This document shows positions 848 to 26,196 of a stretch of DNA of 26,196 nucleotides, piece after piece (within the stretch, counting starts at the first letter, position 1; every line of letters begins with the position of its first letter). The stretch is from a virus. Its lineage: Duplodnaviria > Heunggongvirae > Uroviricota > Caudoviricetes. The notes below the pieces were generated by a model that was not told the origin of the DNA, searched no databases, and was given only the letters and a program-made list of their open reading frames with translations. The stretch spans positions 1-26,196 of IMG/VR virus record IMGVR_UViG_2874945390_000006. One strand, written 5' to 3'. The position numbers and the translations under genes were made by a program.

Positions 848-919
848 TGAAGTGGCACACTGAATTTGGCCACCTGAACAGAGGTGATATGCTCACCTCA
901 GAACAACACAGGTGCTCCA

Positions 920-4165: not shown

Positions 4166-4273
4166 GGAAACTTTTGCTTAATGAACAATGACAGAATCGT
4201 CGGAAGACCTGAGGTAGCCTGAGTTTAACGGACACTCCTTCCTGAAATAGAATGGCATCAGAAGGAGCTAATA

Positions 4274-4576
4274 ATGAGCAGAAAAACCCAACGTTACTCT
4301 AAAGAGTTCAAAGCCGAAGCTGTCAGAACGGTTCTTGAAAATCAACTTTCGATCAGTGAAGGCGCTTCCCGATTATCCCTTCCTGAAGGCACTTTAGGAC
4401 AATGGGTTACCGCCGCCAGAAAAGGGCTCGGTACTCCTGGTTCCCGCACGGTGGCTGAACTGGAATCTGAAATTCTGCAACTGCGTAAGGCGTTAAATGA
4501 AGCTCGCCTTGAGCGAGATATATTAAAAAAAGCAACAGCGTATTTTGCACAGGAGTCGCTGAAAAATACGCGTTAA
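4274..4576 (+). CDS. IS600 OrfA
   Basis: 100-aa HTH protein; A7 run at 4525-4531 is the likely -1 frameshift site into orfB. Confidence 0.85.
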   Translation: MSRKTQRYSKEFKAEAVRTVLENQLSISEGASRLSLPEGTLGQWVTAARKGLGTPGSRTVAELESEILQLRKALNEARLERDILKKATAYFAQESLKNTR

Positions 4577-4611
4577 TCGAACAATGGCGACAACAATTTC
4601 CCATTGAAGCG

Positions 4612-5430
4612 ATGTGTCAGGTATTTGGTGTATCCAGGAGCGGTTATTACAACTGGGTACAGCATGAACCCTCAGACAGAAAACAAAGTGATGAGCGGCT
4701 AAAACTGGAGATTAAGGTGGCACATATCTGCACTCGCGAAACATATGGAACCCGGCGGCTCCAGACGGAGCTGGCAGAGAATGGCATCATCGTTGGTCGT
4801 GACCGACTGGCACGTCTTCGTAAGGAGCTAAGGCTACGCTGTAAGCAGAAACGCAAGTTCAGAGCGACTACGAACCCGAACCACAATCTGCCAGTTGCGC
4901 CAAATCTGCTGAACCAGACGTTCGCTCCTACAGAACCAAATCAGGTCTGGGTGGCGGACCTGACGTATGTTGCCACACAGGAGGGATGGTTGTACCTCGC
5001 TGGCATCAAAGATGTTTATACGTGCGAAATTGTCGGCTACGCCATGGGAGAGCGCATGACAAAAGAGCTGACAGGTAAAGCCCTGTTTATGGCGCTCAGG
5101 AGCCAGCGCCCACCTGCCGGGCTAATCCACCACTCTGATCGAGGTTCACAGTACTGCGCATACGATTACCGGGTCATACAGGAGCAGTTTGGTCTGAAAA
5201 CATCAATGTCGCGTAAAGGTAACTGTTACGACAACACTCCGATGGAAAGCTTCTGGGGAACGCTGAAAAATGAGAGCCTGAGCCACTATCGTTTTAATAA
5301 CCGGGATGAAGCCATCTCAGTAATACGGGAATACATTGAGATTTTCTACAATCGTCAGCGTCGTCACTCTCGTCTGGGGAATATCTCCCCGGCAGCCTTC
5401 AGGGAAAAATATCATCAGATGGCTGCTTAA
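4612..5430 (+). CDS. IS600 OrfB (DDE transposase catalytic part)
   Basis: 272-aa ORF in the -1 frame; that frame is open back to the A7 run, consistent with an OrfAB fusion. Confidence 0.85.
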   Translation: MCQVFGVSRSGYYNWVQHEPSDRKQSDERLKLEIKVAHICTRETYGTRRLQTELAENGIIVGRDRLARLRKELRLRCKQKRKFRATTNPNHNLPVAPNLLNQTFAPTEPNQVWVADLTYVATQEGWLYLAGIKDVYTCEIVGYAMGERMTKELTGKALFMALRSQRPPAGLIHHSDRGSQYCAYDYRVIQEQFGLKTSMSRKGNCYDNTPMESFWGTLKNESLSHYRFNNRDEAISVIREYIEIFYNRQRRHSRLGNISPAAFREKYHQMAA

Positions 5431-5473
5431 AAAAAGAACAAATGGTAGTGTCCGCTATTGCCAGTACACCTCA

Positions 5474-6762
5474 CTCTGGCCTGCTCGCTTTGTCTCTTCA
5501 ACAAAGAAATGGTTATCGGTTTCGGCTCCCGTAAAGAGGAATACGTCGACAGCACCGGTGACCCGAAAGCATTGTTCTGGAAGGCGCGCAAGTTCGTGGA
5601 AACACTACCTGTAGAGTTTCGCGGTTCGTGGAGCGAGAAGAAGCATGCGCCATATATGCGTGTTGAGTTTCCTGAAACTGGCGCGGTTATCAAAGGTGAG
5701 GCTGGCGATAATATCGGTCGTGGTGACCGTACGACCCTTTATTTTGTGGATGAGGCTGCTTTTCTCCAGCGACCATTACTTATTGATGCCGCGCTTTCTC
5801 AGACAACCCGACGTCGTATCGATCTCTCATCGGTTAACGGCATGAACAACCCCTTCGCACAGAAGCGGCACAGTGGAAAAATCCCGGTGTTTACGTTTCA
5901 CTGGCGTAGCGATCCGCGTAAAGACGATGAGTGGTATCACAAGGAGTGCGAGAAAATTGATAACCCAGTCATCGTTGCCCAGGAACTGGATCTTAATTAC
6001 CAGGCATCAGCAGAAGGCATCCTGATCCCCTCAGAATGGGTACAGGCTGCGGTTGATGCACATATCAGACTGGGCATTCAGCCCGGCGGGCAACGGCTTG
6101 GTGCAATGGATGTCGCCGACGAAGGGCGGGATAAAAACGCCTGTTCGCTCCGTTATGGCATCCTGCTGAATGACGTACAGGAGTGGTCAGGTAAGGGGAG
6201 TGACATCTATGACTCTGTGGTTAAGGTTTTTGGTCTGTGCGATGACTTTGGTGCCGATGAGTTTCGCTTTGATGAGGACGGATTGGGTGCTGGCGTTCGT
6301 GGTGATGCGCGCGCTATCAACGAACTGCGTGAAGCGGAGGGCATCTGTCAAATCACCGCCACTCCATTCCGGGGCAGCGGGAGCGTGTTTCATCCTGAAA
6401 ATGAAGCTGTTCCCGGTGATAATGGTAAACCGGCTCGTCTGAATAAGGACTTTTTTGTCAATGCCAAAGCCCAGGGGTGGTGGCATCTTCGCAAATTATT
6501 CCGCAATACATTTCGTGCACTACAGGGTATGGAGTATGACCCGGATGAGATTATTTCCATCAGCAGCACAATGGAAAATAAAGACCGGCTGTTGATGGAG
6601 CTGTCACAACCTACCTGGTCAAAAAATGCCACCGGAAAAATTCTTGTGGATAAGCAACCTGACGGAACGAAATCTCCAAACCTGGCTGATTCTGTGATGA
6701 TTGCTTATGCCCCGATGGAAATGCCCATCGTAATTTCTGATGACTTTATGGAGTGGATCTGA
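5474..6762 (+). pseudogene. Terminase large subunit, 5'-truncated (ATPase Walker A region missing) at the IS600 copy 1 right end
   Basis: Frame is open from the IS boundary; Walker B-like [10 protein letters not shown] is present but no Walker A GxxxxGK[ST] precedes it. Position immediately upstream of the portal gene with a TGATG stop/start overlap. Confidence 0.7.
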
Positions 6763-10379: not shown

Positions 10380-10862
10380 ATGAATACTTTTCAGACACAC
10401 ATGAACCAGTACCCGGCACCGGGTATTCCGGGGGCGTTTGCCAGTGCTAACCCTCATGCCTCGTATGTGGCGGGAGATGGCGGGCTGATTACCGGCCCTG
10501 ACGGGCTGGTAATTGCCCGGTTTGCCTGGGTAACCAAAGGTGTTGCCGCTAATAAGGGGGCCGGCGCACCGGCGGGTTTTGTTCCTCGTGACGGGCAGGC
10601 TTCCATTGTGGAATGGCTGGCCGGGGACTCGAACACCATTTATCCGGGGCGTGAATGCACCCTGATGGTGTCGGGGGATTTCTGGGCGCTGACCACCACT
10701 ACTGCGACGATCGGGCAGAAAGTATTTGCCTCACTGGCCACCGGGGAGATAGCCACGGGGGCGGCTGGCACCTCGATGGCGGGGTTTGTCGAAACCTGGT
10801 TTTCCGTTGCCAGCGCTGCGGCGGCAAAAGAAGTCATTAAGATCAGTACCTGGAGCAAATAA
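10380..10862 (+). CDS. Putative capsid decoration / small head structural protein
   Basis: 160-aa Gly/Ala-rich protein immediately upstream of the major capsid gene, 2 bp after the preceding stop. Confidence 0.4.
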
Positions 10863-11890
10863 TGAATAAATTTAAACAGCATTATGCGACGGCAAGTCGC
10901 GACTACGGGATTATTCTTCCCGGAGCACAGGCTTATTTGCCGAAGGAGTACGCTGCCGATTACGGACTGGCGATGGACGCGCAGCCTGCGCTGGTCACAG
11001 CGGCTAACAGCGGTATCCCTGCGTATTTCACCAATTACGTTGAGCCAGAACTGATCCGCGTGCTGGTGACGCCGATGAAAGCCGCTCAGATTCTGGGCGA
11101 AACCAAAAAAGGTGACTGGACGACACTGTCGGCACAATTCCCGATTGCAGAATCTGACGGGGAGGTGAGTTCCTACGGGGATTACAGCAACAACGGGGTG
11201 GTAAGCGCAAACGTCAACTGGGTACCGCGCCAGAGCTATCACTTCCAGACCTTCACCGTATGGGGCGAACGTGAGCTGGAGATGTACGGCGCAGCCCGTA
11301 TTGGCTGGGCGGCAGAGCTGAACGTGGCGTCAGCACTGACGCTGAATAAGTTCCAGAATAAGTCCTATTTCTACGGTATTGCCGGACTGACGAACTACGG
11401 TTTGCTGAATGATCCGTCGTTATCTGCACCAATCACCCCGGATACCGTTGACGGTAAACTGAAGTGGGACGACAAGGACGGACAGGGCGTGTATGACGAT
11501 ATCGTGAAACTCTTTGAGCAACTGGTGAAACAGACTAACGGTCATATTGAGCGTACCGACAAAATGAAACTGTGCATGTCGCCGCTGGCAGAGGTGAACC
11601 TCACCAAAACAAACCAGTACAGGGTTAACGTGTCCGATCTGCTGGCGAAAAATTTCCCGGCGATGACCATTGAAACGGCGGTGGAATACACCTCTGACGC
11701 TGGCGAGCTGGTACAGCTTATCGCGGAGCGTCTGGGTGAACAGGATACAGGCTATTGCGCTTTCACTGAAAAAATGCGCGCCCATGCGGTAGTGGCAGAT
11801 ACGTCTTCCTGGAAACAGAAAAAATCCGCTGGTACCTGGGGGGCGATTATTCGCCAGCCGCTGGCGTATGCACAAATGCTGGGGGTGTGA
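10862..11890 (+). CDS. Major capsid protein
   Basis: 342-aa ORF in the canonical position after scaffold and decoration genes; ATG overlaps the upstream stop (TAATG). Confidence 0.6.
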
Positions 11891-11893
11891 GTT

Positions 11894-12241
11894 ATGGCTG
11901 AAATGGTAACAGTGGGCTGTAAACTGCCGAACGGTCTGGTGCTGGAAGTGGGTCAGAAACGGGTTCAGGTGGCAGGCTGGCGGAATAACGCGGTTAAAAT
12001 TGTGGGGGGCTATGGTCTGACGCAGGTCGATAAGGTGTTTTTTGACGCCTGGCTGGCGGAGCACGGACAGCAACCTTATGTGAAAAATGGCGTTATTTTT
12101 GCGCAGGATAAGGCGAACAGTGCAGTCTCGCAGGCTACGGAGCAGAAAGCCGTTAAATCCGGCCTTGAACCGCTGCCGCAGAAAAATCCGGCTCCGGGCG
12201 TTAACCGCAATGATGAAGTGATGGGTAAACCTCAGGAGTAA
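11894..12241 (+). CDS. Hypothetical small head-associated protein
   Basis: 115-aa ORF tightly packed between the capsid and connector genes; no recognisable motif. Confidence 0.4.
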
Positions 12242-12246
12242 ACGCT

Positions 12247-13278
12247 ATGGGTACGGTGACGTTTGACTGTCGGATGTTTGTCAGTCTGTACCCGGAGTTT
12301 TCCACGGTGACACCGGAGCTACTGACGGCGGTGTTTAACCAGGCGACCGCGTTGTACCTGGATAACACGGACGACAGTCCGGTTACCGACCTGAAGGAGC
12401 GGGAACAGCTTCTGTTCCTGCTGGTTGCGCATCTGTGCGCATTGCGGGGGCTGGGAAACGGGAGAGACGGGCAGGCTGGTCTGGTGGGGCGTATCACCAG
12501 TGCGTCGGAAGGTTCTGTATCGGTATCGGTGGATAATAGCGGCAGTAATGATGCGTCGTGGTGGTATCTCCAGACCCCCTGGGGTGCTGACTACTGGCAG
12601 GCGACAGCGCCATACCGCTCAATGCAGTATCATTCCGGGGGGCACCTTCGCGATATCCGGGGCATTATTACCGGGGATACGGGAGGGGCGTCGATGGTAA
12701 ATAAAGTCACAGGTGGCAAACAGTTCCGGCAGACGCTGAAACAGGTTGCCGCGAACCTTTCATTGGGTAAAAAACTCAAAGTGGGTTTTCTTGAGGGAGC
12801 AACTTACCCTGACGGTACGTCAGTGGCTTATATTGCCGCAGTTCAGGAGTTTGGCGGAAGAGCGGTCATACCCGCCCGTGAGCAGACGCTCCACTTTCGC
12901 TATAACGAAAAAACGGGAGAAACCGGGCACCGCTTTGTCAAAGCCGGTAAAGGGAATTTTGTTCAGGATGTGGTTATTCCTGAGCACACGGTCACCATTC
13001 CCCCCCGTCCGTTCTTCCGTAAGATGATCGAACATAAAAGTCCCGAATGGGGCGAAAAAATGGCGACCTTATTACGGGCGAATGATTTTGATACTGCGAC
13101 CGCTCTGGTGTGTATGGGAGAACATATCAAAGGGCAGTTGCAGATGTCTGTTCGCGACTGGGAAAGTCCGCCCAACGCTGCATCCACTGCCCGGCAAAAG
13201 GGTTTTAACAACCCGCTTATTGAAACCGGACATATGATGGACAGCGTTGATTATTCTGTAGACGGGGGCAAAAAATGA
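12247..13278 (+). CDS. Head-tail connector-like protein (DUF4054-like N-terminal region fused to an HK97 gp10-like C-terminal region)
   Basis: 343 aa; N-terminal [38 protein letters not shown]... resembles DUF4054; C-terminal part (...[36 protein letters not shown]...) resembles gp10-family tail-completion proteins; Gly-rich linker between them. Confidence 0.4.
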
Positions 13279-13640
13279 ACTTTCACGGTATTGTTTCCGG
13301 CGCAGTACGTCGGGTAAATCCCTTTACAGACGCGCTGGTTTATCGTTCCCGCGGGAGTACACAGCAGGCAGATTATTCCCGCGTACCTGAGTATGAAGAT
13401 CCGGTTTCCGTCAGGGTGCAAAAGCAGGCTGTCACTCAGGCTGATTTACGTCATCTTGATAATCTTAACCAGCAGGGAGTTTTCGCCACATTGTATACCG
13501 ATGGTAACTGGTGCGGGCTTAACCGTGCCCGGCAACAGGGAGGCGATAAATTTGTTATTGGCGATGAAACGTGGCTGGTGATTGAGGTACCGGAAATCTG
13601 TCCTGACTGGACGAGGGTTATTGTATGCCTTCAGGTGTGA
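13275..13640 (+). CDS. Hypothetical phage head-tail joining protein
   Basis: 121-aa ORF overlapping neighbours in the usual ATGA style; position between connector and neck genes. Confidence 0.4.
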
Positions 13641-14171
13641 CCCTCTCCGTTACGGAAAGCGCTCTTTATCAGGCCCTCGGTGATTATCTCCGGGGGCTTT
13701 TTTTCTGATGCCGGGATTGAACGAACGCAGCAGAACCAGGTCCCGATGCCTCAGGGGAATTTCATCACCATGACGGGCATTGATGTTACCGGATTATCCA
13801 CTGCGGTAGTGGCATATTCTGCGCCAGCGCAGGCTGGTGAGGGCTCTCAGCATATCACCCGTACCACAAAATGGCGTTGCCAGCTTGATTTCTACGGCCC
13901 TCACGCGGCAGATAACGCGCAGGTGCTGGCAACGCTTTTCCGGTCTGAATTTTCCGTACGGCTTTTCCGGCAGGGCGGTGGGCTGATTTCCCCGCTGTAT
14001 TGCTCAGAGCCCTTTAACACCACATTCCCCAACGGTCAGCAACAGTATGAACCGCGCTGGACGCTTGATATTCAGATGCAGATTAACCCTGTGGTCACAA
14101 CTTCCCTGATGTTTTTTGACAACGTGATCACCCGGACAACGGAGGCTGATAATGCCAATTCCACTCAGTAA
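13625..14171 (+). pseudogene. Neck/tail terminator-like structural gene interrupted by a +1 frameshift in a T7 homopolymer (13698-13704)
   Basis: ATG 13625 with RBS GAGGG 8 nt upstream gives [27 protein letters not shown] and stops at 13706-13708; the remainder of the protein (SDAGIERTQQNQVPMPQG..., track ORF 13680-14171) continues in the +1 frame. Removing one T from the run fuses the two. Confidence 0.5.
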
Positions 14172-15636
14172 AGATGTACAGATAAATCCCGGTGTGCTGG
14201 CTGTGGCGGGTAATGCCGTCGATCTTAACGGCCTGCTGTTGACCAGTAATCCGTTACTTCCGGTCGGCACTGTGGTTCCGTTTTCCTCTCCGGATGATGT
14301 GGCCGCGTATTTTGGTGCATTATCCGATGAGTACGCACGCGCTCAGCTTTATTTCCAGGGCTTCAAAAATGCCACCAGGACGCCGGGGCAATTGTTGTTT
14401 TCCCGTTTCAGTCCTGCCCCATCGGCGGCCTGGTTACGTAGCGGTTCGTTTAAGGGCGCGACTGTTGAACAGCTACAAAAACTTTCCGGCACGCTGATGC
14501 TGAGTATTAACGGGAAAAGCGTCAGCATTGAAGTGAATTTTAACGGTGTCGCCAGCTTCGCCGCTGCTGCAACGGCACTACAGACAGCGCTGACCGCAGC
14601 AGTGGCTACAGTGGTATTCGATACCACACAGAATGCTTTTGTCATTACTGTCGCCGGGGCGAAACCCGAGAGTACCACGATAACGTTCGGCAGTGGATCG
14701 GCAGCAGAACTCCTGAAGATGACCAGTAACACCGGTGCGGTGATATCCCGGGGCGCGCCTGTATCTGATGTCCCTGACACAATGGCAGCCATTAAGGCCG
14801 CTTCCCAGCAATGGGCGGGTTTTTCCACGGTATCTGAGGTCACTGACGAGCAACACCTGGCGTTTTCTGCATGGGCAAACGGGCAGGGCAAGCGTTACTT
14901 TTATGTGGCATGGACAACCAGCGGCAACGCCAGAGTAAAAGGCAGTACTGAACACATCGCTTACCAGATAATTGCTGTCAATAACTACAGCTCTGTTGTA
15001 CCTGTTTTCGCGACTGATGGTAACCGGGCTGCAGCGGTACTGGGGTATGCAGCGTGCCTTGATTTTGTCCGACCAGAGGGGCGTGTATCATTCAAGTTCC
15101 GCGAGTATGAGGGGCTGGCCGCTGATGTTACCAGTGGCAGCGATTATGATGCGCTGATCGCCGCAGGTTACAATTTCTACGGAAAATATGCGGAAAACAG
15201 TGTGGTGGAAGATTACTGGGCGGATGGCACTATTACCGGTGATTTTAAATGGCTGGACAGTTTCTGCGGGCAAATCTGGCTGAATGCCAGTTTGCAGGGG
15301 GCGGTGATCGCGTTATTCAAGTCAAACCAGACGATCCCCTACAACAATGAAGGGCGGGCGCTGGTTGCAGCGTCAATGAGTGACGTTATCCAGCAGTACA
15401 AACGCTGGGGAGGGATCCGTGAAGGGGGGACACTGACGGAGGCGCAGAAGAAACAGATTAACAATGTTGTGGGGGCAGATGTTTCTTCAACGTTGTTTGC
15501 CACCGGCTATTACCTGTATATCGGCGATATGCTTCCCTCTTTGCGGGCAACCCGTAGCAGTCCGTCCTGTACGCTCTGGTACTGTGACGGCGGTAGTATC
15601 CAGAAACTTGTTATTGCATCCACGGAGGTCCAGTAA
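14152..15636 (+). CDS. Contractile tail sheath protein (DUF3383-like)
   Basis: 494 aa, RBS GGAGG 8 nt upstream of ATG 14152; size and sequence character of phage sheath proteins; followed directly by a tube-sized gene. Confidence 0.7.
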
Positions 15637-16083
15637 ATGTCGGGTAACAACAACACCATCACTGCGGCGGATGCCATTATCACGCTGACAGTGAATAATC
15701 TGTATCCCTCCGGCGTACGACTTCAGGGATTTGCAACAGATAACGTTTATGGCACCGATCCACTGGTACTGGCGGAAACTGCCCGCGGTATTGACGGTAA
15801 ACTGTCCGCGGGATTTGTGTACAGCAACATTATCCAGACGTTTCATATCATGCCGGATTCCCCCAGCCGGGATATTTTTGATACTTGGTTAACCACATCC
15901 CGGGCCAGTCGGGCTGTATTCCGTTGTAACGCTGTCGTCCTGCTTCCGGCGATTGGCCGTAAATATACCTGCGTGAATGGCGTACTCAAACAATGGAAAG
16001 CGCTGCCTGATGCAGCTCGTACGTTGCAGCCAGGGCAGGCGGTTATTGAGTGGGAAACCATTACTCCGGAGGTTTTTAACTGA
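15637..16083 (+). CDS. Tail tube protein
   Basis: 148 aa, GGAGG RBS, directly downstream of the sheath gene. Confidence 0.6.
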   Translation: MSGNNNTITAADAIITLTVNNLYPSGVRLQGFATDNVYGTDPLVLAETARGIDGKLSAGFVYSNIIQTFHIMPDSPSRDIFDTWLTTSRASRAVFRCNAVVLLPAIGRKYTCVNGVLKQWKALPDAARTLQPGQAVIEWETITPEVFN

Positions 16084-16487
16084 TGGCCCGTAAAGAGAAA
16101 TTTATCACTATTGAAGGTCAGGGACGGGATAAGGGCAAGGTATTTCATCTTACCGAAATGTCTGCCTCACAGGCGGAATGGTGGGCGATGCGTGCCATTA
16201 TGGCAATGGGGCGTGGTGGCGTGGAGTTACCGGATGATGTTCGTAGTCTGGGGATGGCTGCGCTTGCCCTTGAAGGGCTGAAAGCATTATCGAAAATTCC
16301 GCCTGATGAGGCGCGTCCGTTGATGGATGAAATGATGGACTGTGTGCAGTTTGTTCCCGATCCGAAAAAACGCAGCATCCGGAGACCGCTTGTTGAAGAG
16401 GATATTGAAGAAATCATTACCCGTCTTAATCTGCGTGCGGAGGTCTTTAAGCTGCATGTGGATTTTTTCGCTACCGTCGTCAGCTAG
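16083..16487 (+). CDS. Tail assembly chaperone (pre-tape-measure gene)
   Basis: 134-aa acidic protein between the tube and tape measure genes; ATG overlaps the tube stop. Confidence 0.45.
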   Translation: MARKEKFITIEGQGRDKGKVFHLTEMSASQAEWWAMRAIMAMGRGGVELPDDVRSLGMAALALEGLKALSKIPPDEARPLMDEMMDCVQFVPDPKKRSIRRPLVEEDIEEIITRLNLRAEVFKLHVDFFATVVS

Positions 16488-16528
16488 ATATCCCCCCGCG
16501 TTATCTCGACCCCGACAGACCGTTCGGG

Positions 16529-16711
16529 GTGGTGGATTACGTTAATGTTCCCCGTACCATTGCGACCGTTATCTCCTCCGGTAAGGCTTCAAAAGCTGAA
16601 CTGGATTCTGTCCTTGGTGTGCAGGACTTATGGGATCTGCTGGAAATAATTCATGTGGATGCCCATAACGAACAGGTGATACAGGAGAACAGAAATGGCG
16701 CAGGTACTTGA
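16529..16711 (+). CDS. Small hypothetical ORF preceding the tape measure gene (possible second chaperone component)
   Basis: 60-codon ORF with GTG start; overlaps the tape measure start by 17 nt; does not overlap the chaperone ORF. Confidence 0.3.
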   Translation: MVDYVNVPRTIATVISSGKASKAELDSVLGVQDLWDLLEIIHVDAHNEQVIQENRNGAGT

Positions 16712-16776
16712 TGAGCTTGTTCTGTCCCTCGGGATTGATGACAGGGACTTTACTGCCGGGGAACAGGCAGTACATG

Positions 16777-16779
16777 CTG
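16777..16779. repeat. 3-bp target-site duplication (CTG), left copy, of IS600 copy 2
   Basis: CTG immediately before the IS end at 16780 matches CTG at 18044-18046. Confidence 0.7.
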
Positions 16780-16822
16780 TGAGGTGTACTGGCAATAGCG
16801 GACACTACCATTTGTTCTTTTT

Positions 16823-17641
16823 TTAAGCAGCCATCTGATGATATTTTTCCCTGAAGGCTGCCGGGGAGATATTCCCCAGACGAGAGTGACGACGCTGACG
16901 ATTGTAGAAAATCTCAATGTATTCCCGTATTACTGAGATGGCTTCATCCCGGTTATTAAAACGATAGTGGCTCAGGCTCTCATTTTTCAGCGTTCCCCAG
17001 AAGCTTTCCATCGGAGCGTTGTCGTAACAGTTACCTTTACGCGACATTGATGTTTTCAGACCAAACTGCTCCTGTATGACCCGGTAATCGTATGCGCAGT
17101 ACTGTGAACCTCGATCAGAGTGGTGGATTAGCCCGGCAGGTGGGCGCTGGCTCCTGAGCGCCATAAACAGGGCTTTACCTGTCAGCTCTTTTGTCATGCG
17201 CTCTCCCATGGCGTAGCCGACAATTTCGCACGTATAAACATCTTTGATGCCAGCGAGGTACAACCATCCCTCCTGTGTGGCAACATACGTCAGGTCCGCC
17301 ACCCAGACCTGATTTGGTGCTGTAGGAGCGAACGTCTGGTTCAGCAGATTTGGCGCAACTGGCAGATTGTGGTTCGGGTTCGTAGTCGCTCTGAACTTGC
17401 GTTTCTGCTTACAGCGTAGCCTTAGCTCCTTACGAAGACGTGCCAGTCGGTCACGACCAACGATGATGCCATTCTCTGCCAGCTCCGTCTGGAGCCGCCG
17501 GGTTCCATATGTTTCGCGAGTGCGGATATGTGCCACCTTAATCTCCAGTTTTAGCCGCTCATCACTTTGTTTTCTGTCTGAGGGTTCATGCTGTACCCAG
17601 TTGTAATAACCGCTCCTGGATACACCAAATACCTGACACAT
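16823..17641 (-). CDS. IS600 OrfB (transposase catalytic part)
   Basis: 272 aa, near-identical to the copy 1 OrfB (I/R, E/A and T/A differences). Confidence 0.85.
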   Translation of the reverse strand: MCQVFGVSRSGYYNWVQHEPSDRKQSDERLKLEIKVAHIRTRETYGTRRLQTELAENGIIVGRDRLARLRKELRLRCKQKRKFRATTNPNHNLPVAPNLLNQTFAPTAPNQVWVADLTYVATQEGWLYLAGIKDVYTCEIVGYAMGERMTKELTGKALFMALRSQRPPAGLIHHSDRGSQYCAYDYRVIQEQFGLKTSMSRKGNCYDNAPMESFWGTLKNESLSHYRFNNRDEAISVIREYIEIFYNRQRRHSRLGNISPAAFREKYHQMAA

Positions 17642-17676
17642 CGCTTCAACAGGGAATTGTTGTCGCCATTGTTCGA

Positions 17677-17979
17677 CTAACGCGTATTTTTCAGCGACTC
17701 CTGTGCAAAATACGCTGTTGCTTTTTTTAATATATCTCGCTCAAGGCGAGCTTCATTTAACGCCTTACGCAGTTGCAGAATTTCAGATTCCAGTTCAGCC
17801 ACCGTGCGGGAACCAGGAGTACCGAGCCCTTTTCTGGCGGCGGTAACCCATTGTCCTAAAGTGCCTTCAGGAAGGGATAATCGGGAAGCGCCTTCACTGA
17901 TCGAAAGTTGATTTTCAAGAACCGTTCTGACAGCTTCGGCTTTGAACTCTTTAGAGTAACGTTGGGTTTTTCTGCTCAT
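17677..17979 (-). CDS. IS600 OrfA
   Basis: 100 aa, identical to the copy 1 OrfA; T7 run 17722-17728 is the reverse complement of the slippery A7. Confidence 0.85.
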   Translation of the reverse strand: MSRKTQRYSKEFKAEAVRTVLENQLSISEGASRLSLPEGTLGQWVTAARKGLGTPGSRTVAELESEILQLRKALNEARLERDILKKATAYFAQESLKNTR

Positions 17980-18043
17980 TATTAGCTCCTTCTGATGCCA
18001 TTCTATTTCAGGAAGGAGTGTCCGTTAAACTCAGGCTACCTCA

Positions 18044-19979: not shown

Positions 19980-20430
19980 ATGAGTTTTTCTTTCGATAAT
20001 ATTTCCCTGAATAACTTTTCGCTCAGTGAAAGTAACGTACTGAGTGCAGTTCGTGGCGGCGGTGTCCTGGGACTCATTAACAGTGTACTGGCACCGTCAT
20101 TCGGTATTTATTACGCACGGAATGATCCGGCAGGTGCCCATCAGAAGGGTGGCAAACCTTTCTCCCCGGATTCTTTTGTTGTCGTTGAGGTGGGCGCGGA
20201 GGCTTCTGTTTCCACCGTCCCCGTGGAGCAGGGGGCTTATACCACCTTTAATAAAATCCAGAGATCGCCGGAACTGCATGTGACTTTCACTGTAGAGGGG
20301 TGGACGGCCTTTTCCGGATCCGTCCCGAACCTGACAAATTTTTCCACCACCTCGCGGACGAATGTGCTGGAAACGCTTGAAAGGATGCGTACCACGGCAG
20401 GACTCTACGATATTGAGACGCCGGACAAGA
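19980..20430 (+). pseudogene. Tail-associated protein gene following the tape measure gene, 3' end replaced by the IS66-family element
   Basis: ATG 19980 overlaps the tape measure stop (ATGA); the ORF runs into the IS inverted repeat at 20431 and terminates inside it (track ORF 19980-20459). Confidence 0.45.
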
Positions 20431-20512
20431 GTAAGCGCCCCATCAGCGACGTCTTGTGAAAATTGTCCTGTCTGGCAACAATCGCGCCCATCTATATAGA
20501 TGGACACGAACG

Positions 20513-21187
20513 ATGAATTCCCAGACAAAAAAAGATATTCCCTGCTTCCGTTCTTATTTGCCTGATGCCCTGCGTTTAAGATTTGAAGATAAACTGACCA
20601 TCCGGGCCATCGCTCAGCGTCTGGGTCTCAGTCATTCCACAATACATACGCTTTTTCAGCGATTTCTTGCATCCGGTATCGCATGGCCATTGCCCGATTC
20701 AGTTTCATTCGCTCAACTTGACGCCATCCTTTATGCCAACAGAAAGAAGGAATTAACAGAGCCTCAAATCAGAGAAGGCTCATGGCGAAAAGAACGGCGA
20801 ACCAGCTATAGCCGTGAATTTAAGGTCCGTCTGGCTAAGCAGGCGTTACAGCCTGGGGCTGTTGTTGCCCGGATCGCCAGAGAACACGATATCAATAATA
20901 ACCTGCTGTTTAAATGGAAAAGCCAGTACGAGGACGGCTTACTGAGCGATGATGACATACAGGAATGCATGCCTGTCCCGGTGGCACTGACTGATACGCC
21001 GGAGCCGACCAGACCAGTTACAAATCCCTTCTGGCGTAACAAGCATGATGAGCGCCCTGAGGGGGCTCCCGGAAACGTCCCACGGTGCGAGCTGCATCTT
21101 AAATCAGGTGTGGTAAAACTGTTTGACCCTCTCACTCCGGAACTGTTACGGGCGCTAATCCGCGAAATGAAAGGGGGTATCCGATGA
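20513..21187 (+). CDS. IS66-family TnpA (Orf1, HTH accessory protein)
   Basis: Start at ATG 20513 (MNSQTKK...); contains ...RRTSYSREFKVRLAKQALQPGAVVARIAREHDINNNLLFKWKSQYEDG typical of IS66 Orf1. The track ORF begins at 20456, inside the inverted repeat. Confidence 0.7.
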   Translation: MNSQTKKDIPCFRSYLPDALRLRFEDKLTIRAIAQRLGLSHSTIHTLFQRFLASGIAWPLPDSVSFAQLDAILYANRKKELTEPQIREGSWRKERRTSYSREFKVRLAKQALQPGAVVARIAREHDINNNLLFKWKSQYEDGLLSDDDIQECMPVPVALTDTPEPTRPVTNPFWRNKHDERPEGAPGNVPRCELHLKSGVVKLFDPLTPELLRALIREMKGGIR

Positions 21188-21531
21188 TAACGCTGCCGAC
21201 CGGTACCAAAATCTGGATCATCGCTGGCATCACAGATATGCGTTGTGGCTTCAATGGCCTGGCTTCGAAGGTGCAGAACACGCTGAAAGATGACCCGTTC
21301 TCCGGGCATATCTTCGTCTTCCGGGGCCGCAGTGGCAAAATGGTGAAAATACTGTGGGCCGATCGTGACGGGTTATGCCTGTTCGCCAAACGCCTGGAAC
21401 GGGGCCGCTTCGTCTGGCCGGTGACCCGGGAAGGGAAAGTGCACCTGACGCCAGCTCAGTTATCCATGCTACTGGAGGGGATCGCGTGGCAACATCCCAA
21501 ACGGACAGAACGGCCTGGCATCCGGATATAA
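21184..21531 (+). CDS. IS66-family TnpB (Orf2)
   Basis: 115 aa, MITLPTGTKIWIIAGITDMRCGFNGL...ILWADRDGLCLFAKRLERGRFVWP, the conserved IS66 Orf2 family. Confidence 0.85.
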   Translation: MITLPTGTKIWIIAGITDMRCGFNGLASKVQNTLKDDPFSGHIFVFRGRSGKMVKILWADRDGLCLFAKRLERGRFVWPVTREGKVHLTPAQLSMLLEGIAWQHPKRTERPGIRI

Positions 21532-21592
21532 CCCGTGATAAAACAAGGGAATGAACAATTAACTCCCCGATGATATTGAGCTGCTTAAAGCC

Positions 21593-23157
21593 ATGTTGCG
21601 TAAGCAACAGAGTCGGCTTCGACAGTATGCCTGTCAGGTCGCGGGCTATGAGCAGGAAATTGAACGGCTGAAAGCGCAACTCGACAGGTTGCGTCGTATG
21701 TTGTTCGGCCAGAGTTCAGAGAAAAAGCGTCATAAGCTTGAAAATCAGATCCGACAGGCAGAAAAACGACTGTCGGAACTGGAAAACCGGCTGAACACAG
21801 CCAGAAATCTTCTGGAAGATGCATCGTCAGTCACAGATTCACCTGACACCAGTCCCCCGTCAGAAAACCCGATCGCCAGTAAGCCTGAATCCCCGGGACG
21901 AAAATCTTCACGAAAACCGCTGCCGGCAGAACTTCCCCGGGAGACACATCGCCTTCTGCCTGCTGAAACCAGTTGCCCGGCCTGTGGAGGTGTTCTGAAA
22001 GAAATGGGGGAAACAATCTCAGAGCAACTGGATATCATTAATACCGCCTTTAAAGTTATCGAAACCATACGTCCCAAACTGGCCTGTAGCCGGTGTGATG
22101 TCATCGTTCAGGCACCACTTCCCCCTAAACCGATCGAACGCGGTTATGCCAGTGCAGGGTTACTTGCACGGATCCTGGTCAGCAAATATATGGAACATAT
22201 CCCTTTATATCGCCAGTCAGAAATATACGCGCGACAGGGCGTGGAGCTGAGCCGTAATACCATGGTGCGCTGGGTATCAGAAATGGCAGACAAACTCCGT
22301 CCTCTGTATATAGCGCTGAATGACTATGTTCTTGAGGCAGGAAAGGTGCACGCAGATGGCACTCCGGTGAAAGTACTGGCCCCGGGGAACGGAAAGACGA
22401 AAACGGGTCGTCTGTGGGTATACGTCAGGGATGATCGTAATGCGGGTTCATCCCTGCCGGCAGCCGTCTGGTTCGCGTATTCGGCAGATCGCAAAGGAGA
22501 ACATCCGCAGCTCCACCTGGCAAAGTATCAGGGCGTACTGCACTGCAGGCTGATGCCTATGCAGGTTATAACGTACTGTACGAAACGGGCCGGGTGAAGG
22601 AAGCCGGGTGCCTGGCCCACGCCCGCCGAAAAATCCATGACGAGGATGTGCGCCGTCCGACAGAAATGACTCAGGAAGCGCTCAGACGGATAGCAGAGTT
22701 ATACGACATAGAAGCGGAGATACGTGGCAGTCCGGCAGAGGAACGGCTTGCAGTCAGAAAAGCCAGAAGCGTCCAGTTGATGCAGTCGTTGTACGACTGG
22801 ATACAGTTGCAGAGGAAAACGCTGTCGAAACATGCGGAGATGGCGAAGGCGTTCGACTATATCCTGAATCACTGGAATGCGCTGAACGAGTTCTGTCGTG
22901 ACGGCTGGGTGGAAATAGACAACAACATCGGTGAAAACGCGTTACGATCGGTGGCGGTTGGAAGAAAAAATTATCTCTTTTTCGGCTCAGACAAGGGAGG
23001 AGAAAGTGCGGCGATCATCTACAGTCTGCTGGTCACCTGCAAACAGAACGAAGTGGAGCCGGAGGACTGGTTGCGCGAAGTGATCGAGAAGCTCAATGAC
23101 TGGCCGTCGAACCAAGTGCATGAACTGCTGCCCTGGAACTTCTCGTCTGTAAAATAA
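21593..23157 (+). pseudogene. IS66-family transposase TnpC (Orf3), disrupted by a 5-bp tandem duplication (CTGCA CTGCA at 22538-22547)
   Basis: Track ORFs 21593-22597 and 22594-23157 are two halves of one transposase (…CPACGG…HADGTPV…[12 protein letters not shown]… then …[13 protein letters not shown]…[13 protein letters not shown]…). Deleting 5 nt restores the conserved [32 protein letters not shown] stretch. Confidence 0.8.
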
Positions 23158-23189
23158 TCCTTACGCTACGTACTTCTCGGGGCGCTTAC

Positions 23190-23795
23190 ATTGGTACGAC
23201 GAATGCGTTAGGTGGAAGTTCAATCGTTTTAGGAGATAACGATACCGGGTTTAAACAAAATGGCGATGGTCTGCTTGATGTTTATGCGAATGGACAGCAT
23301 GTATTTCGTTTTCAGAATGGCGTGGCTATTGCTTTTAAGAATATTCAGGCCGGAACTGCCAGAAAATTCACGTTATCCAGCGCCAACAACTCCACGAAAA
23401 ATGCAGCGTTTTGTTTGTGGGGTAATCCATCCAGGCCTGTTGTTGCAGAGCTTGGTGATGATTCAGGCTGGCATTTTTTCAGCCAGAGAAACCCGGATAA
23501 CAGCATAGTGTTCACTGTTAACGGACAGGTAATTCCGTTAAATTACGGAAACTTCGATGCCCGCTATAAATATCGAACAGAGGGGGTACAGGATGTACGG
23601 TATGGCCATGAAATGTATTACAGCCCCGGCAGTAACACCGTTTCGTGGAGATTTTGCGCACCTTCGGGACACGGGCTGTCAGGGATGGCGATATCGGATA
23701 CCGGCCGTAACTCAGCGGATAACGTTGACGGTGTGTATTACCGACCACTGCAAAAACTGATTAATGGCACCTGGTATAACGTAGCGAGTATTTAA
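23190..23795 (+). pseudogene. 3' fragment of a side tail fibre gene (receptor-binding C-terminal region), 5' end lost at the IS66-family right end
   Basis: Frame is open from the IS boundary with no upstream start in phage sequence; ends ...YYRPLQKLINGTWYNVASI, resembling the C-terminus of lambdoid Stf proteins; a tail fibre assembly gene follows 3 bp later. Confidence 0.6.
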
Positions 23796-23797
23796 CA

Positions 23798-24220
23798 ATG
23801 TTGCATTTAAAAAATATTACTGCGGGTAATCCGAAAACAGCAGAACAATATCAGATGACAAAACGATATTCGGTCACCTGGCTTTTTTCAGAAGACGGAA
23901 AAAACTGGTATGAAGAGCTGAAGAATTTCGCCAGCGACACAATAAAAATAGCTTACACCGGAGATGGTCGCGTGGTGTGGGTCGGTAAGGATGTGACAGG
24001 CATCGAGCCACGCAATGCCAGCGTTATCGAAGTTCCGGATATTACCGCTAACCGACGGATTACCGCGCCGGGTTACTGGTTTTACCGCAATGATGAATTT
24101 GTCTTTGACTACAGACTCAAAGCGGAAGATGAGCGTGATGCCCTTCTGGCTCAGGTCAGTGCCCGGACAGGGGAATGGGAAGAAGACCTGCTGCTGGGGT
24201 TAATCAGCGAGAAAAGCTGA
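23798..24220 (+). CDS. Tail fibre assembly protein, Mu U-like N-terminus; C-terminus atypical
   Basis: N-terminus MLHLKNITAGNPKTAEQYQMTKRYSVTWLFSEDGKNWYEE...VIEVPDITANRR matches the Mu U/Tfa family; starts 3 bp after the fibre fragment stop. Confidence 0.65.
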   Translation: MLHLKNITAGNPKTAEQYQMTKRYSVTWLFSEDGKNWYEELKNFASDTIKIAYTGDGRVVWVGKDVTGIEPRNASVIEVPDITANRRITAPGYWFYRNDEFVFDYRLKAEDERDALLAQVSARTGEWEEDLLLGLISEKS

Positions 24221-24356
24221 AAGCCTGTCGTATTTACGCGAAATCACTGCAGGCGATGGATTTCAGCACCATCACTGATAAATCCTCATACAACGCCATT
24301 GAATGGTCCGTCTCTCCGGAAGGTTCTTCCTGATTTAATTTATCGCGAGAAAAACT

Positions 24357-25622
24357 ATGTCTGTAGTGATATCAGGTGCGCTGACTGATGGCGCAGGTAT
24401 CCCCATGTCCGGATACCATATTATTCTGAAATCCCGGGTAAACACCCCGGAAGTGGTGATGCACACTGTTGCTGATGTGATGACAGGAAACGATGGTGAA
24501 TACTGTTTCCATGCGCGGACTGGAAAATATGGTGTGTATCTGAAACAGGACTGGCGCAACGAGTACTGTGTTGGCGACATTGCTGTATACGACGACTCAA
24601 AGCCCGGCACGCTGAATGACTTTCTGATTGCTCCTGATGAGGGCGACCTGAAACCGGATGTCGTCAAACGCTTTGAGGAAATGGTGGCGCAGGCGCAGCA
24701 GAGCGCCGGGGCCGCAGCCGGAAACGCACGGCAGACGGCGCAGGATGTGGCGGCAGCCGCAGGTTATGCCCGCGCAGCAGAACAGGCCAAAAATGACATT
24801 GATGCTGCGCTGACCGGCACTCTGAAAACGGCTAACCATCTGTCTGAAATCGCAGCAGCAGGCGAAAAGGCACAACAGAAGTCCCGGGATAGTCTGGGGC
24901 TGAAAAGTGCAGCCACGATGGAAGCACAGAGCGACATTTACGACCGGACAAAAGGCCGTCTGGCGATACCCGGCGCATTCGGCTTTGGGCGTGCTTTTCT
25001 GTATGAAGATGTTATCCGTTTTGACGCTAAGGATGATTTCCTGGCCTGGGTAAGGAATGCGCTGCCAGGTGAATATTCCGTTGCTGCCCCCTACGACATC
25101 ATCATACCCGACGCACTGTTTGAAGGGGGGCTCAGCATCCGGTGGACTGATGCACGCCCTGAGACAAGGGAACCGCGGCGCAGAGCCAAATCCCTTACTT
25201 TTTACGGCATTAACGGCCCCATTTATCACGCCCGCTACCGGCTCTTATCTGGATTTCTGACTGACTGGGTGAAAATAAATATAACCACAGAAGATATTAT
25301 TTACAGAATCGTGGCGAGCTCTGTCCGCAACAGATGGGGAGACCCTGACATTGGCGGGCTGATTATTGCTGCGTACCAGGGAGAAGCTGACGGTGATAAA
25401 GACATCAGACTTGTCAGGGGGCGGTCATACAGAGGCTCACGACTGGGACCGGTGGGGATTTCAGCGCCCTGTACTCCCACCGGAACGCATATAGTATACC
25501 CACAATATTTCATTACGGGATGTTCAGAGCATTCATTACCGGGGTCATATTGCGCCCTGTCCGGGGTGCCGGATACATATGTCTCTGGCGCAATGCTTGG
25601 GCTTTTTATTCGCACATCGTGA
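24357..25622 (+). CDS. Side tail fibre protein with prophage tail-fibre N-terminal domain
   Basis: 421 aa; N-terminus MSVVISGALTDGAGIPMSGYHIILKSRVNTPEVV...VYDDSKPGTLNDFLIAPDEGDLKPDVV parallels the conserved N-terminal domain of E. coli prophage Stf proteins, followed by an Ala/Gln-rich coiled region and a distinct C-terminal domain. Confidence 0.65.
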   Translation: MSVVISGALTDGAGIPMSGYHIILKSRVNTPEVVMHTVADVMTGNDGEYCFHARTGKYGVYLKQDWRNEYCVGDIAVYDDSKPGTLNDFLIAPDEGDLKPDVVKRFEEMVAQAQQSAGAAAGNARQTAQDVAAAAGYARAAEQAKNDIDAALTGTLKTANHLSEIAAAGEKAQQKSRDSLGLKSAATMEAQSDIYDRTKGRLAIPGAFGFGRAFLYEDVIRFDAKDDFLAWVRNALPGEYSVAAPYDIIIPDALFEGGLSIRWTDARPETREPRRRAKSLTFYGINGPIYHARYRLLSGFLTDWVKINITTEDIIYRIVASSVRNRWGDPDIGGLIIAAYQGEADGDKDIRLVRGRSYRGSRLGPVGISAPCTPTGTHIVYPQYFITGCSEHSLPGSYCALSGVPDTYVSGAMLGLFIRTS

Positions 25623-25632
25623 GGAATGCACC

Positions 25633-26196
25633 GTGGAAATTAAAAAAATCATTAATCCCCGTTATACCGAAAGTGGCGCAGTAGACTGTGACGTTTTTTT
25701 TGACGACAGGGACCAGGCAGTCCCCTACACAGCCACCGCTGATGATGTCGCTTCGACGGGTCAGCAAATCTGGCAGGAACTGCAAAGCGGCAAATGGGGT
25801 GAGATAGCCCCATTCACTGTGACACCAGAAATGCTGGAAGCGGCCAGAGAGGCCAGACGTCAGGGAATTGAAGCATGGCGCACAGAACAGGAGGCGAAGC
25901 CGTTCACGTTTGAATGGAACGGTCGTATCTGGAATGCTGGCCCCAACTCACTGGGCCGCCTTTATCCGGTGGTAATGGCTGCGAAATCCGACATTGTACG
26001 GGACGTGATGACGTGGGGTGATGCCGATAATCAGCAGGTGAAACTGTCGATGCCGGAACTGGAAGAACTGGCGGCAGCAATGGCTCAGGCACAGGTTGAG
26101 CGCAATGACGAGATTTATCGCCGTCAGCGGGAGCTGAAGGAAGAGCTGAATAGTCTGAAGGATTTGAATTCGGTTAGGAATTTTATCGTGGAATAA
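25633..26196 (+). CDS. Putative tail fibre assembly/chaperone protein
   Basis: 188 aa from GTG 25633 (RBS GAGGAA 7 nt upstream); the track ORF starts earlier at 25579 and overlaps the fibre gene. Assigned by position directly downstream of the fibre gene; stop TAA at the last three bases of the window. Confidence 0.4.
   Translation: MEIKKIINPRYTESGAVDCDVFFDDRDQAVPYTATADDVASTGQQIWQELQSGKWGEIAPFTVTPEMLEAAREARRQGIEAWRTEQEAKPFTFEWNGRIWNAGPNSLGRLYPVVMAAKSDIVRDVMTWGDADNQQVKLSMPELEELAAAMAQAQVERNDEIYRRQRELKEELNSLKDLNSVRNFIVE

Follow-up and report, generated by a model that had tools for sequence, protein, structure and literature searches.

We found that the end of the 26,196-nt stretch of viral DNA analyzed here (the window), from position 23190 to position 26196, is best explained as a whole as the decayed right-hand end, concerned with host recognition, of a defective prophage of myovirus type, the Shigella boydii "sit island," a reading to which we give a probability of about 0.85. 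Two tandem cassettes of a tail fibre and a chaperone gene lie there on one strand, as the first-pass annotation had described; the first is inactivated, the second has intact reading frames, and no invertible switch accompanies them.

The last 11,840 nt of the window are the same as S. boydii CP026836.1 with 0 mismatches, and the downstream DNA could therefore be read from that record, of which 9.4 kb was examined. The order past the window is sitDCBA cargo, an attR core, uspF, ompN (porin), and ydbK (PFOR). The attR core beside uspF (26 bp) is identical to the attB of Escherichia phage Rac-SA53; the prophage occupies the attachment site of Rac-SA53, next to uspF and ompN. Identification of the sheath and tube genes listed below bore out the contractile-tail context noticed earlier. 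Further head and tail families of the prophage include an XM1 gp53-type cement protein and a Phage_tail_terminator_9 protein, and a PDB search with its E217 gp28-like protein returned spurious matches only. Elsewhere, the prophage is riddled with insertion sequence (IS) elements.

14152 to 15636: DUF3383/E217 gp31-type sheath (PF11863; 8env, E 1e-15)
15637 to 16083: E217 gp32-type tube
19980 to 20430, plus strand: Dit-like baseplate gene, 5' part, interrupted by the IS66-family element (Pfam Dit_like, weak match at E 8.9e-4)
20431 to 23189, plus strand: IS66-family insertion sequence with tnpA, tnpB, and a split tnpC (HTH_Tnp_1, TnpB_IS66, DDE_Tnp_IS66, IS66_C)
23190 to 23795, plus strand: Mu S-type baseplate tail fibre (fibre 1), 3' fragment, last 201 codons (100% identity to intact fibres)
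23798 to 24333, plus strand: Mu U-type tail fibre assembly chaperone (Tfa), frameshifted pseudogene (Caudo_TAP, PF02413, E 2.1e-12)
24357 to 25622, plus strand: second fibre (fibre 2), intact, 421 aa (PF08400 at residues 1 to 131, E 9.7e-70, full profile)
25633 to 26196, plus strand: DUF4376 protein, presumed fibre 2 chaperone, 187 aa (PF14301, E 2.2e-15, residues 88 to 192)

Gene content and lesions of the two cassettes

The fibre 1 fragment is 100% identical to residues 200 to 400 and 212 to 412 of intact fibres of 400 and 412 aa in S. dysenteriae L005/L006, and the earlier description of a fibre 3' fragment therefore stands. The gene is a pseudogene because its start codon is absent, the IS66-family element having cut it at 23189/23190. 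The intact homologue matches the Mu fibre protein S (5yvq_A, E 3.4e-56) and also the phiTE short tail fibre (9cuy, 1.7e-13), and the top PHROG match of fibre 1 is phrog_454, tail fibre. Directly downstream lies the Caudo_TAP chaperone gene, whose intact homologue matches Mu U (5yvq_B, E 3.6e-37). Relative to L005, enteroinvasive Escherichia coli (EIEC) VL40, and phiP27, the window copy carries a 10-bp deletion (ACGAAGATAA, after window position 24209) that splits it into ORFs of 140 and 52 aa, matching residues 1 to 139 and 140 to 181 of 181-aa homologues. Because of this deletion the Tfa gene is a pseudogene as well; the first-pass annotation was right in calling the product Mu U-like and overlooked the deletion. 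Both genes of this Mu S/U-type pair are thus inactivated in the window.

Position 23190, where the first-pass annotation began the region, is exactly the first base past the right inverted repeat of the IS66-family element. The terminal inverted repeats (GTAAGCGCCCC) lie at 20431 to 20441 and 23179 to 23189, the Dit-like ORF runs into the left end at 20431, and the 8-mers flanking the element are unlike (GGACAAGA versus ATTGGTAC). The two junctions mark where the baseplate genes were deleted along with the fibre 1 5' half. The genes deleted in the window are found in the S. dysenteriae copy L005 and in EIEC VL46. At the right IS66 junction, the one covered by the loci compared, the S. dysenteriae copies differ from the window, and there was no sign of a target duplication; if the insertion were shared with those copies, the deletion in the window would be one that arose next to it. 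Very probably the IS66-family element and a deletion beside it account for the loss of the baseplate genes and the fibre 1 5' half.

Fibre 2 is complete and consists of a Stf-type N-terminal collar domain, an Ala-rich shaft, and a narrowly distributed C-terminal domain. It aligns over its full length with a 422-aa homologue in EIEC VL40 (92% identical), which confirms the earlier report of a complete second fibre with an Stf N-terminal domain. Its N-terminal domain hits the collar domain of lambda Stf (9e7m/9mgh, E 5.3e-15), with 44.5% identity to that of lambda orf-401. Thus, the label "lambdoid type," which had been given to both cassettes, holds for the N-terminal domain of fibre 2 only, fibre 1 and Tfa being of Mu/P2 type. 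Likeness to lambda Stf ends with this domain: the C-terminal domains are unrelated, and the chaperone is a Caudo_TAP protein there and a DUF4376 protein here. A T4 gp37-like tip domain with a Caudo_TAP chaperone was likewise not found for fibre 2, the downstream gene being DUF4376.

Past residue 202, sequence searches of fibre 2 gave no PDB or Pfam match. An AlphaFold model of the C-terminal domain, for which 12 sequences were aligned, was of poor quality (pLDDT 46), and a Foldseek search of the PDB with it gave nothing below E 0.015. The top matches, none of them significant, were phage fibre or receptor-binding proteins (phi812, P68, and R1 pyocin). Because of the poor model and the lack of a significant structural match, we base the assignment of this part as a putative receptor-binding domain on its position and on analogy. 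It has only 37 database relatives, from Shigella, E. coli, and Salmonella; many of the entries are partial proteins encoded on short contigs. The exact fibre 2 sequence occurs in one genome, that of S. boydii (WP_134796318.1).

The DUF4376 gene most likely begins at the GTG at 25633, which is preceded by GAGGAA, rather than at the ATG at 25579 that opens the longest ORF. This accords with the annotations of phiP27 L57, pPE4 gp70, and 187-aa Shigella proteins; the product is 76 to 79% identical to L57 and gp70, and the alignment starts at codon 19 of the long ORF. The gene thus begins 11 nt past the fibre 2 stop, so that a PF14301 protein directly follows the fibre, and its TAA stop is the last position of the window, as stated earlier. 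The family phrog_11571 is a hybrid in which a Tfa N-terminal part is joined to a DUF4376 C-terminal part. The gene bears a record of past purifying selection (dN/dS 0.16 to 0.27). In Alteromonas phages V22 (gp26/gp27) and A5 (gp8/gp9), DUF4376 proteins of about 190 to 240 aa are encoded directly after the fibre they serve, and gp27 and gp9 have been reported as fibre chaperones (PMC7289586, PMC10579305). Those fibres differ from the one in the window. From these two phages and the phrog_11571 hybrid, the window protein is presumed to be the chaperone on which fibre 2 would depend for folding and trimerization.

The question of an invertible switch

The first-pass annotation had suggested that an invertase gene might lie just beyond the window. 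It would then belong to a switch of the Mu G, P1 C, or e14 P type, exchanging fibre C termini and chaperones. Tandem pairs of fibre and chaperone genes are indeed the usual content of invertible segments. Also in favor of a switch, the Rac prophage of strain K-12, in the same chromosomal neighborhood, carries stfR-tfaR-pinR.

However, no Resolvase-family gene is present in the S. boydii downstream record: no Resolvase Pfam match was obtained among the called genes, 9.4 kb downstream or 10 kb upstream. Nor did the serine-recombinase motif [YF].R[VIL]S[TS]..Q occur in any of the six frames of the window and the 9.4 kb downstream. Over the same range we found no AAACCnnGGTTT crossover core and no match with 7 or fewer mismatches to the hixL, gix, and hixC 26-mers. 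We give this site search less weight, and the case against a switch stands chiefly on the absent recombinase gene and on the absence of inverted repeats flanking the two fibre cassettes. An invertase is also absent from 7 of the 7 relatives inspected.

The arrangement of the genes speaks against inversion as well. Both cassettes are on the plus strand, and each fibre has its own N terminus; alternative fibre 3' parts in opposite orientation on one constant 5' part were not found, fibre 2 having its own start. Besides, blastp of fibre 1 against fibre 2, and of the first chaperone against the second, gave no match at E < 1e-3, and hence no constant region is shared. In Mu, whose S and U (like H and G of P2) are the counterparts of fibre 1 and Tfa, that pair is part of the invertible G segment, S'/U' point the other way, and gin adjoins the segment; unlike Mu, the window has neither an inverted partner nor an invertase. 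The first-pass annotation had itself named the lack of an invertase or crossover sites downstream, and of a constant region shared by the fibres, as what would refute the idea, and both are what we observed. The invertible host-range switch is refuted, and we leave it next to no probability.

Recurrence and mosaicism of the four-gene module

The order fibre, Tfa, PF08400 fibre, and DUF4376 forms the last structural block in all seven relatives. The block stands before attR in phiP27 (L54 to L57), before the integrase in Actinobacillus phage vB_Apl-pPE4 (gp67 to gp70), before attB in Rac-SA53 (tail1 to tail4), and before ipaH in EIEC VL40, and is likewise present in E. coli C7 and ETEC4090. EIEC VL46 is the intact counterpart: it keeps genes for a spike, a sheath initiator, baseplate J, and DUF2612, after which come the four module genes and sitDCBA. 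Rac-SA53 has the same attachment core, and both it and pPE4 have other fibre 2 C-terminal domains, in proteins of 1,061 and 667 aa, respectively. Compared with Rac-SA53, pPE4, and VL46, the window has lost the baseplate genes and the fibre 1 5' half, and its Tfa gene is frameshifted. In all, the module has matches in 457 of 5,426 complete E. coli genomes, and the layout of two fibres and two chaperones is already known from phiP27 and hundreds of E. coli prophages.

Among the closest known systems, the Stx2e phage phiP27 (NC_003356) has the genes in the same order at the extreme right end of its genome, with identities to the window of 67% for Tfa, 40 to 46% for fibre 2, and 79% for DUF4376. 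It differs in that all four genes are intact, fibre 2 is longer (490 aa), no sit cargo follows, and the tail and baseplate genes are unrelated, without detectable similarity to the window prophage.

The fibre-region proteins are 87 to 97% identical to those of EIEC VL40, whereas the baseplate proteins reach at most 32%, which identifies a horizontally exchanged host-range module. With pPE4, identity is 66 to 89% for the fibre 1 fragment, Tfa, the N-terminal part of fibre 2, and DUF4376, and only 32% for the fibre 2 C-terminal domain; with phiP27, fibre-region identities are 40 to 79%. Over VL40, pPE4, and phiP27, baseplate and tail proteins are at most 24 to 37% identical or undetectable. Nucleotide similarity to these three is limited to window positions 23190 to 26196. 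The earlier claim that the host-range genes have a history other than that of the tail genes is thereby upheld. Most likely the four genes move jointly, as one unit exchanged by recombination among unrelated temperate phages with contractile tails, and host range changes through module swapping, not DNA inversion.

Attachment and fate of the second fibre

In the intact phage, two adsorption devices, independent of each other, would have stood at the end of the late operon. If Mu and P2 are a guide, the first would be the Mu S-like fibre, with the N terminus inserted in the baseplate wedge and the tip at the C terminus folded by the Mu U-like Tfa chaperone. The second would be an accessory fibre, the Stf-type Ig-like N-terminal domain forming a collar around the tail or a neck ring and the C-terminal receptor-binding domain being folded by the DUF4376 chaperone encoded directly downstream. 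The Stf N-terminal domain has been described as a collar in Ur-lambda (PMC12617516), and XM1 gp40 docks at the neck (PMC10457771). Lambda Stf docks at the tube/Dit junction of a noncontractile tail, whereas the carrier of the window module encodes sheath and baseplate genes.

It is conceivable, if less likely than not, that fibre 2 is no foreign lambdoid addition and is instead the native neck or collar fibre of an E217/XM1-like myovirus lineage, with a role like that of XM1 gp40 and an Ig-like domain docking on the connector and tail-terminator rings. Residues 1 to 202 of fibre 2 match residues 1 to 196 of gp40 (collar spike 7kjk_A3, E 5.6e-6), whose Ig-like domain spans residues 1 to 126, and the E217-type sheath and tube, the XM1 gp53-type cement, and the Phage_tail_terminator_9 protein fit such a lineage. 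Furthermore, the tube-to-Dit junction that lambda Stf uses would lie hidden beneath a sheath, which would leave the neck as the accessible ring (PMC12617516, PMC10457771). However, the domain is closer to that of lambda Stf, as the values above indicate, and the roughly 300 phage records that have it are mostly lambdoid siphoviruses. The pair of fibre 2 and DUF4376 also occurs in phiP27, a phage with unrelated tail and neck genes, and the prophage terminator has no significant match to XM1 gp5 (E 1). This alternative bears on nothing but where the fibre attaches, and it can stand together with the decayed host-recognition end proposed here.

With the baseplate genes deleted from the prophage, both cassettes are leftovers, and we infer that neither device still functions; fibre 2 and the DUF4376 gene would have stayed intact only as remnants. 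Taken alone, their intactness may reflect recent decay or retained function, but decay is favored because the fibre 2 gene is broken in the S. dysenteriae copies, with products of 290 and 304 aa. We regard as very improbable that the two genes were kept by selection for a function in the lysogen next to the sit virulence cargo, for instance as an adhesin on the cell surface or as a component that a different resident phage or tailocin takes over. Their ORFs are intact amid an IS-riddled prophage, and the C-terminal domain of fibre 2 shows 25 nonsynonymous and 4 synonymous differences from VL40 (dN/dS of about 2.1), as diversifying selection would give; these counts are small, however, and relaxed constraint fits them equally well. 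The disruption in S. dysenteriae and the many partial relatives on short contigs argue against such a role. The fibre 2 gene has no export signal, and no signal for a promoter or terminator of the second cassette's own rose above shuffled expectation.

We therefore advise annotating the region as a pseudogenized fibre 1 and Tfa followed by an intact Stf-type fibre with a DUF4376 chaperone, not as a candidate invertible switch. It illustrates cleanly how four host-range genes can be shared, at 80 to 95% nucleotide identity, among contractile-tailed prophages whose tails are otherwise unrelated. Virulence cargo lies directly behind the fibre module and before attR, sitABCD here and ipaH in the EIEC relative. 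We tentatively raise a broader possibility, which we hold to be rather less than even, that the PF08400 fibre and DUF4376 pair is a self-contained accessory-fibre cassette able to dock on rings of virions that are unrelated in structure (lambda at the tube/Dit junction, XM1 at the neck, and myoviruses of the E217-like and phiP27 types at the tail). If so, the cassette could plug behind any primary fibre and add a second receptor specificity, and the window would be one decayed example.

Organization of the terminal fibre region

At 23190-26196 lies the host-range module that ends a Shigella prophage. The module is degraded, ordinary in type and without an inversion system. The window reaches from int to the final tail gene and so contains almost all of the prophage, which is interrupted by two IS3-family copies and an IS66-family element, as follows.

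1-873, minus strand: partial tyrosine integrase, truncated by the window's left edge
Replication genes
4210-5474: first IS3-family copy, 1,265 bp
5458-6762: probable terminase, assigned by position only, without a Pfam match
Head genes: portal, Mu F-like protein, DUF2213 protein and XM1 gp53-type cement
10862-11890: probable major capsid gene, assigned by position only, without a Pfam match
Neck proteins
DUF3383/E217 gp31-type sheath and E217 gp32-type tube
16779-18043: second IS3-family copy, 1,265 bp, inverted relative to the first and 99.4% identical
SLT-domain tape-measure gene: 5' end removed by the second IS3-family copy, which places the ATG at 17995 within that copy
19980-20430: Dit-like baseplate gene, cut by the left side of the IS66-family element
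20431-23189: IS66-family element with HTH_Tnp_1, TnpB_IS66 and a DDE_Tnp_IS66 transposase in two ORFs (split tnpC, 21593-22597 and 22594-23157)

The IS3-family copies bracket the terminase-to-tube genes. Across 23190-26196, ORF listing and Pfam scans revealed four consecutive plus-strand features, the second of which is split.

23190-23795, plus strand: fragment of a Mu S-type fibre (fibre 1), an open frame of 201 aa without a start codon
23798-24220, plus strand: first ORF of the chaperone Tfa, 140 aa, Caudo_TAP (PF02413, E 2.1e-12)
24175-24333, plus strand: second ORF of Tfa, 52 aa, in a different frame from the 140-aa ORF
24357-25622, plus strand: Stf-type fibre 2, 421 aa, residues 1-131 covering the entire PF08400 profile ("prophage tail fibre N-terminal"; E 9.7e-70)
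25579-26196, plus strand: longest ORF of the DUF4376 gene (PF14301, E 2.2e-15), its TAA stop being the window's final codon

Since these Pfam matches lie far beyond chance, the tandem fibre and chaperone features seen in the first-pass annotation are real. The layout is already known from the sequence of phiP27 and from annotations of many genomes. The order fibre, Tfa, PF08400 fibre and DUF4376 protein forms the final structural block in seven relatives: phages phiP27 (L54-L57, before attR), pPE4 (gp67-70, before the integrase) and Rac-SA53 (tail1-4, before attB), and the prophages of EIEC VL40 (followed by ipaH), EIEC VL46 (followed by sitDCBA), and E. coli C7 and ETEC4090. Among 5,426 complete E. 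coli genomes, 457 contain matches.

Deletions in the baseplate and first chaperone genes

The IS66-family element has the terminal inverted repeats GTAAGCGCCCC, and 23190, where the fibre region had been taken to start, is the base directly after its right repeat. Two S. dysenteriae copies of the same prophage encode fibres of 400 and 412 aa, whose C-terminal 201 residues are 100% identical to the 201-aa fibre 1 frame. This intact homologue is similar to tail fibre protein S of Mu (5yvq_A, E 3.4e-56) and, at its tip, to the phiTE short tail fibre (9cuy, E 1.7e-13). The 8-mers on the two sides of the element are unlike (GGACAAGA versus ATTGGTAC), and therefore its junctions mark a deletion, which removed baseplate genes over a length of at least 4.7 kb: the E217 gp41-like, spike, sheath initiator, baseplate J and DUF2612 wedge genes, together with the 5' half of fibre 1. 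All of these are present in S. dysenteriae 1012 and EIEC VL46. Because its baseplate genes are absent, the prophage presumably cannot build a tail. The S. dysenteriae copies contain an IS66 end at another right junction.

Alignment with three relatives shows that 10 bp (ACGAAGATAA) are missing from the window after 24209. This deletion splits Tfa in two, and the pieces correspond to residues 1-139 and 140-181 of 181-aa homologues. Similarity of the intact homologue to Mu tail fibre assembly protein U (5yvq_B, E 3.6e-37) bears out the earlier label of a Mu U-like chaperone, but the gene in the window is a pseudogene.

Fibre 2 and the DUF4376 protein

Fibre 2 is full length compared with a 422-aa EIEC homologue (92% identity), and its gene is intact in the window but broken in the S. 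dysenteriae copies. Its N-terminal domain, 44.5% identical to lambda orf-401, matches the Ur-lambda side tail fibre collar domain (9e7m/9mgh, E 5.3e-15) and is found in about 300 phage records, the majority of them lambdoid siphoviruses. A weaker match links the N-terminal region (24357-24960) to collar spike gp40 of the Vibrio myophage XM1 (7kjk, E 5.6e-6). The side tail fibre N-termini of Ur-lambda assemble into a dodecameric collar where gpV meets gpM (PMC12617516), and the XM1 neck is the docking place of six gp40 trimers (PMC10457771). The gp40 precedent suggests that an Stf-type collar domain could dock at the neck of a sheathed tail, and the gp40 match makes neck attachment of fibre 2 possible in this E217/XM1-like prophage.

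For the C-terminal 232 residues, the databases contain only 37 relatives, from Shigella, E. coli and Salmonella. In some other proteins, such as P0017, this domain (24924-25622) follows an unrelated N-terminal part. The AlphaFold model of the region was poor (pLDDT 46), and a Foldseek search of the PDB with this poor model gave no match better than E 0.015; we therefore only infer a receptor-binding role. Compared with VL40, the domain has 25 nonsynonymous and 4 synonymous differences (dN/dS about 2.1). Relaxed constraint fits this pattern, and so does diversifying selection that acted on a receptor-binding tip in the past.

The DUF4376 gene is intact, and its dN/dS (0.16-0.27) shows purifying selection over the long term. 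It most likely starts at GTG 25633, which is preceded 6 nt upstream by GAGGAA and would give 187 aa, a length shared with phiP27 L57, pPE4 gp70 and several Shigella annotations. DUF4376 proteins encoded directly after the fibre gene in Alteromonas phages V22 and A5 have been shown to be fibre chaperones (PMC7289586, PMC10579305). Both Tfa and the DUF4376 protein are matched by phrog_11571, a PHROG family: Tfa over its N-terminal part and the DUF4376 protein over its C-terminal part. This points to hybrid chaperones combining parts of both and fits DUF4376 as an alternative module with which such chaperones bind fibres.

Module exchange, lack of an inversion system, and cargo

At the nucleotide level, only 23190-26196 of the window is similar to VL40 (95%), pPE4 (about 81-84%) and phiP27 (about 73-84%). 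Fibre-region proteins are 87-97% identical to their VL40 counterparts, whereas for baseplate proteins of the lineage to which the window belongs, identity to VL40 reaches at most 24-32% or no counterpart is detectable, and protein comparison detected none in phiP27. The similarity break falls within the first 60-100 residues of fibre 1. A similar fibre region beside a dissimilar baseplate argues that all four genes were exchanged horizontally as one host-range module, in agreement with the first-pass view that this module belongs to another lineage than the tail genes. In the VL40 locus (15200-16963), a different prophage has this fibre module at 95% identity.

An exact-protein look-up placed fibre 2 in one record, Shigella boydii CP026836.1, which matches the window's final 11,840 bases with 0 mismatches. 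After the DUF4376 stop, this record continues with a 200-bp spacer, sitD, sitC, sitB and sitA on the opposite strand, a 26-bp attB-like core, uspF, an ompN-like porin gene and ydbK. The S. boydii DNA downstream of the window contains no Resolvase-family gene, and neither a serine-recombinase catalytic motif (six frames) nor a hix/gix-like site (up to 7 mismatches to hixL, gix or hixC allowed) was found in the window plus 9.4 kb downstream. Thus, the invertase that might have lain just beyond the window did not materialize, and all seven relatives inspected lack one. No inverted repeats flank the two cassettes, and blastp found no similarity between the fibres, which share no constant region, or between Tfa and the DUF4376 protein. 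An invertible fibre switch was rejected on these grounds, chiefly the missing recombinase gene and flanking repeats.

The 26-bp sequence between the sit genes and uspF is identical to the attB core annotated in Rac-SA53. The iron/manganese transporter genes sitDCBA lie between the final phage gene and this core (within 11841-16500 of the S. boydii locus), with about 3.8 kb of sit DNA in place of about 75 bp in Rac-SA53. These genes are the known "PAI sit" (PMC7545054), which here is clearly cargo within a prophage. The type III effector gene ipaH in VL40 occupies the position held by sit in S. boydii, and the slot behind the DUF4376 gene is thus a recurrent cargo site.
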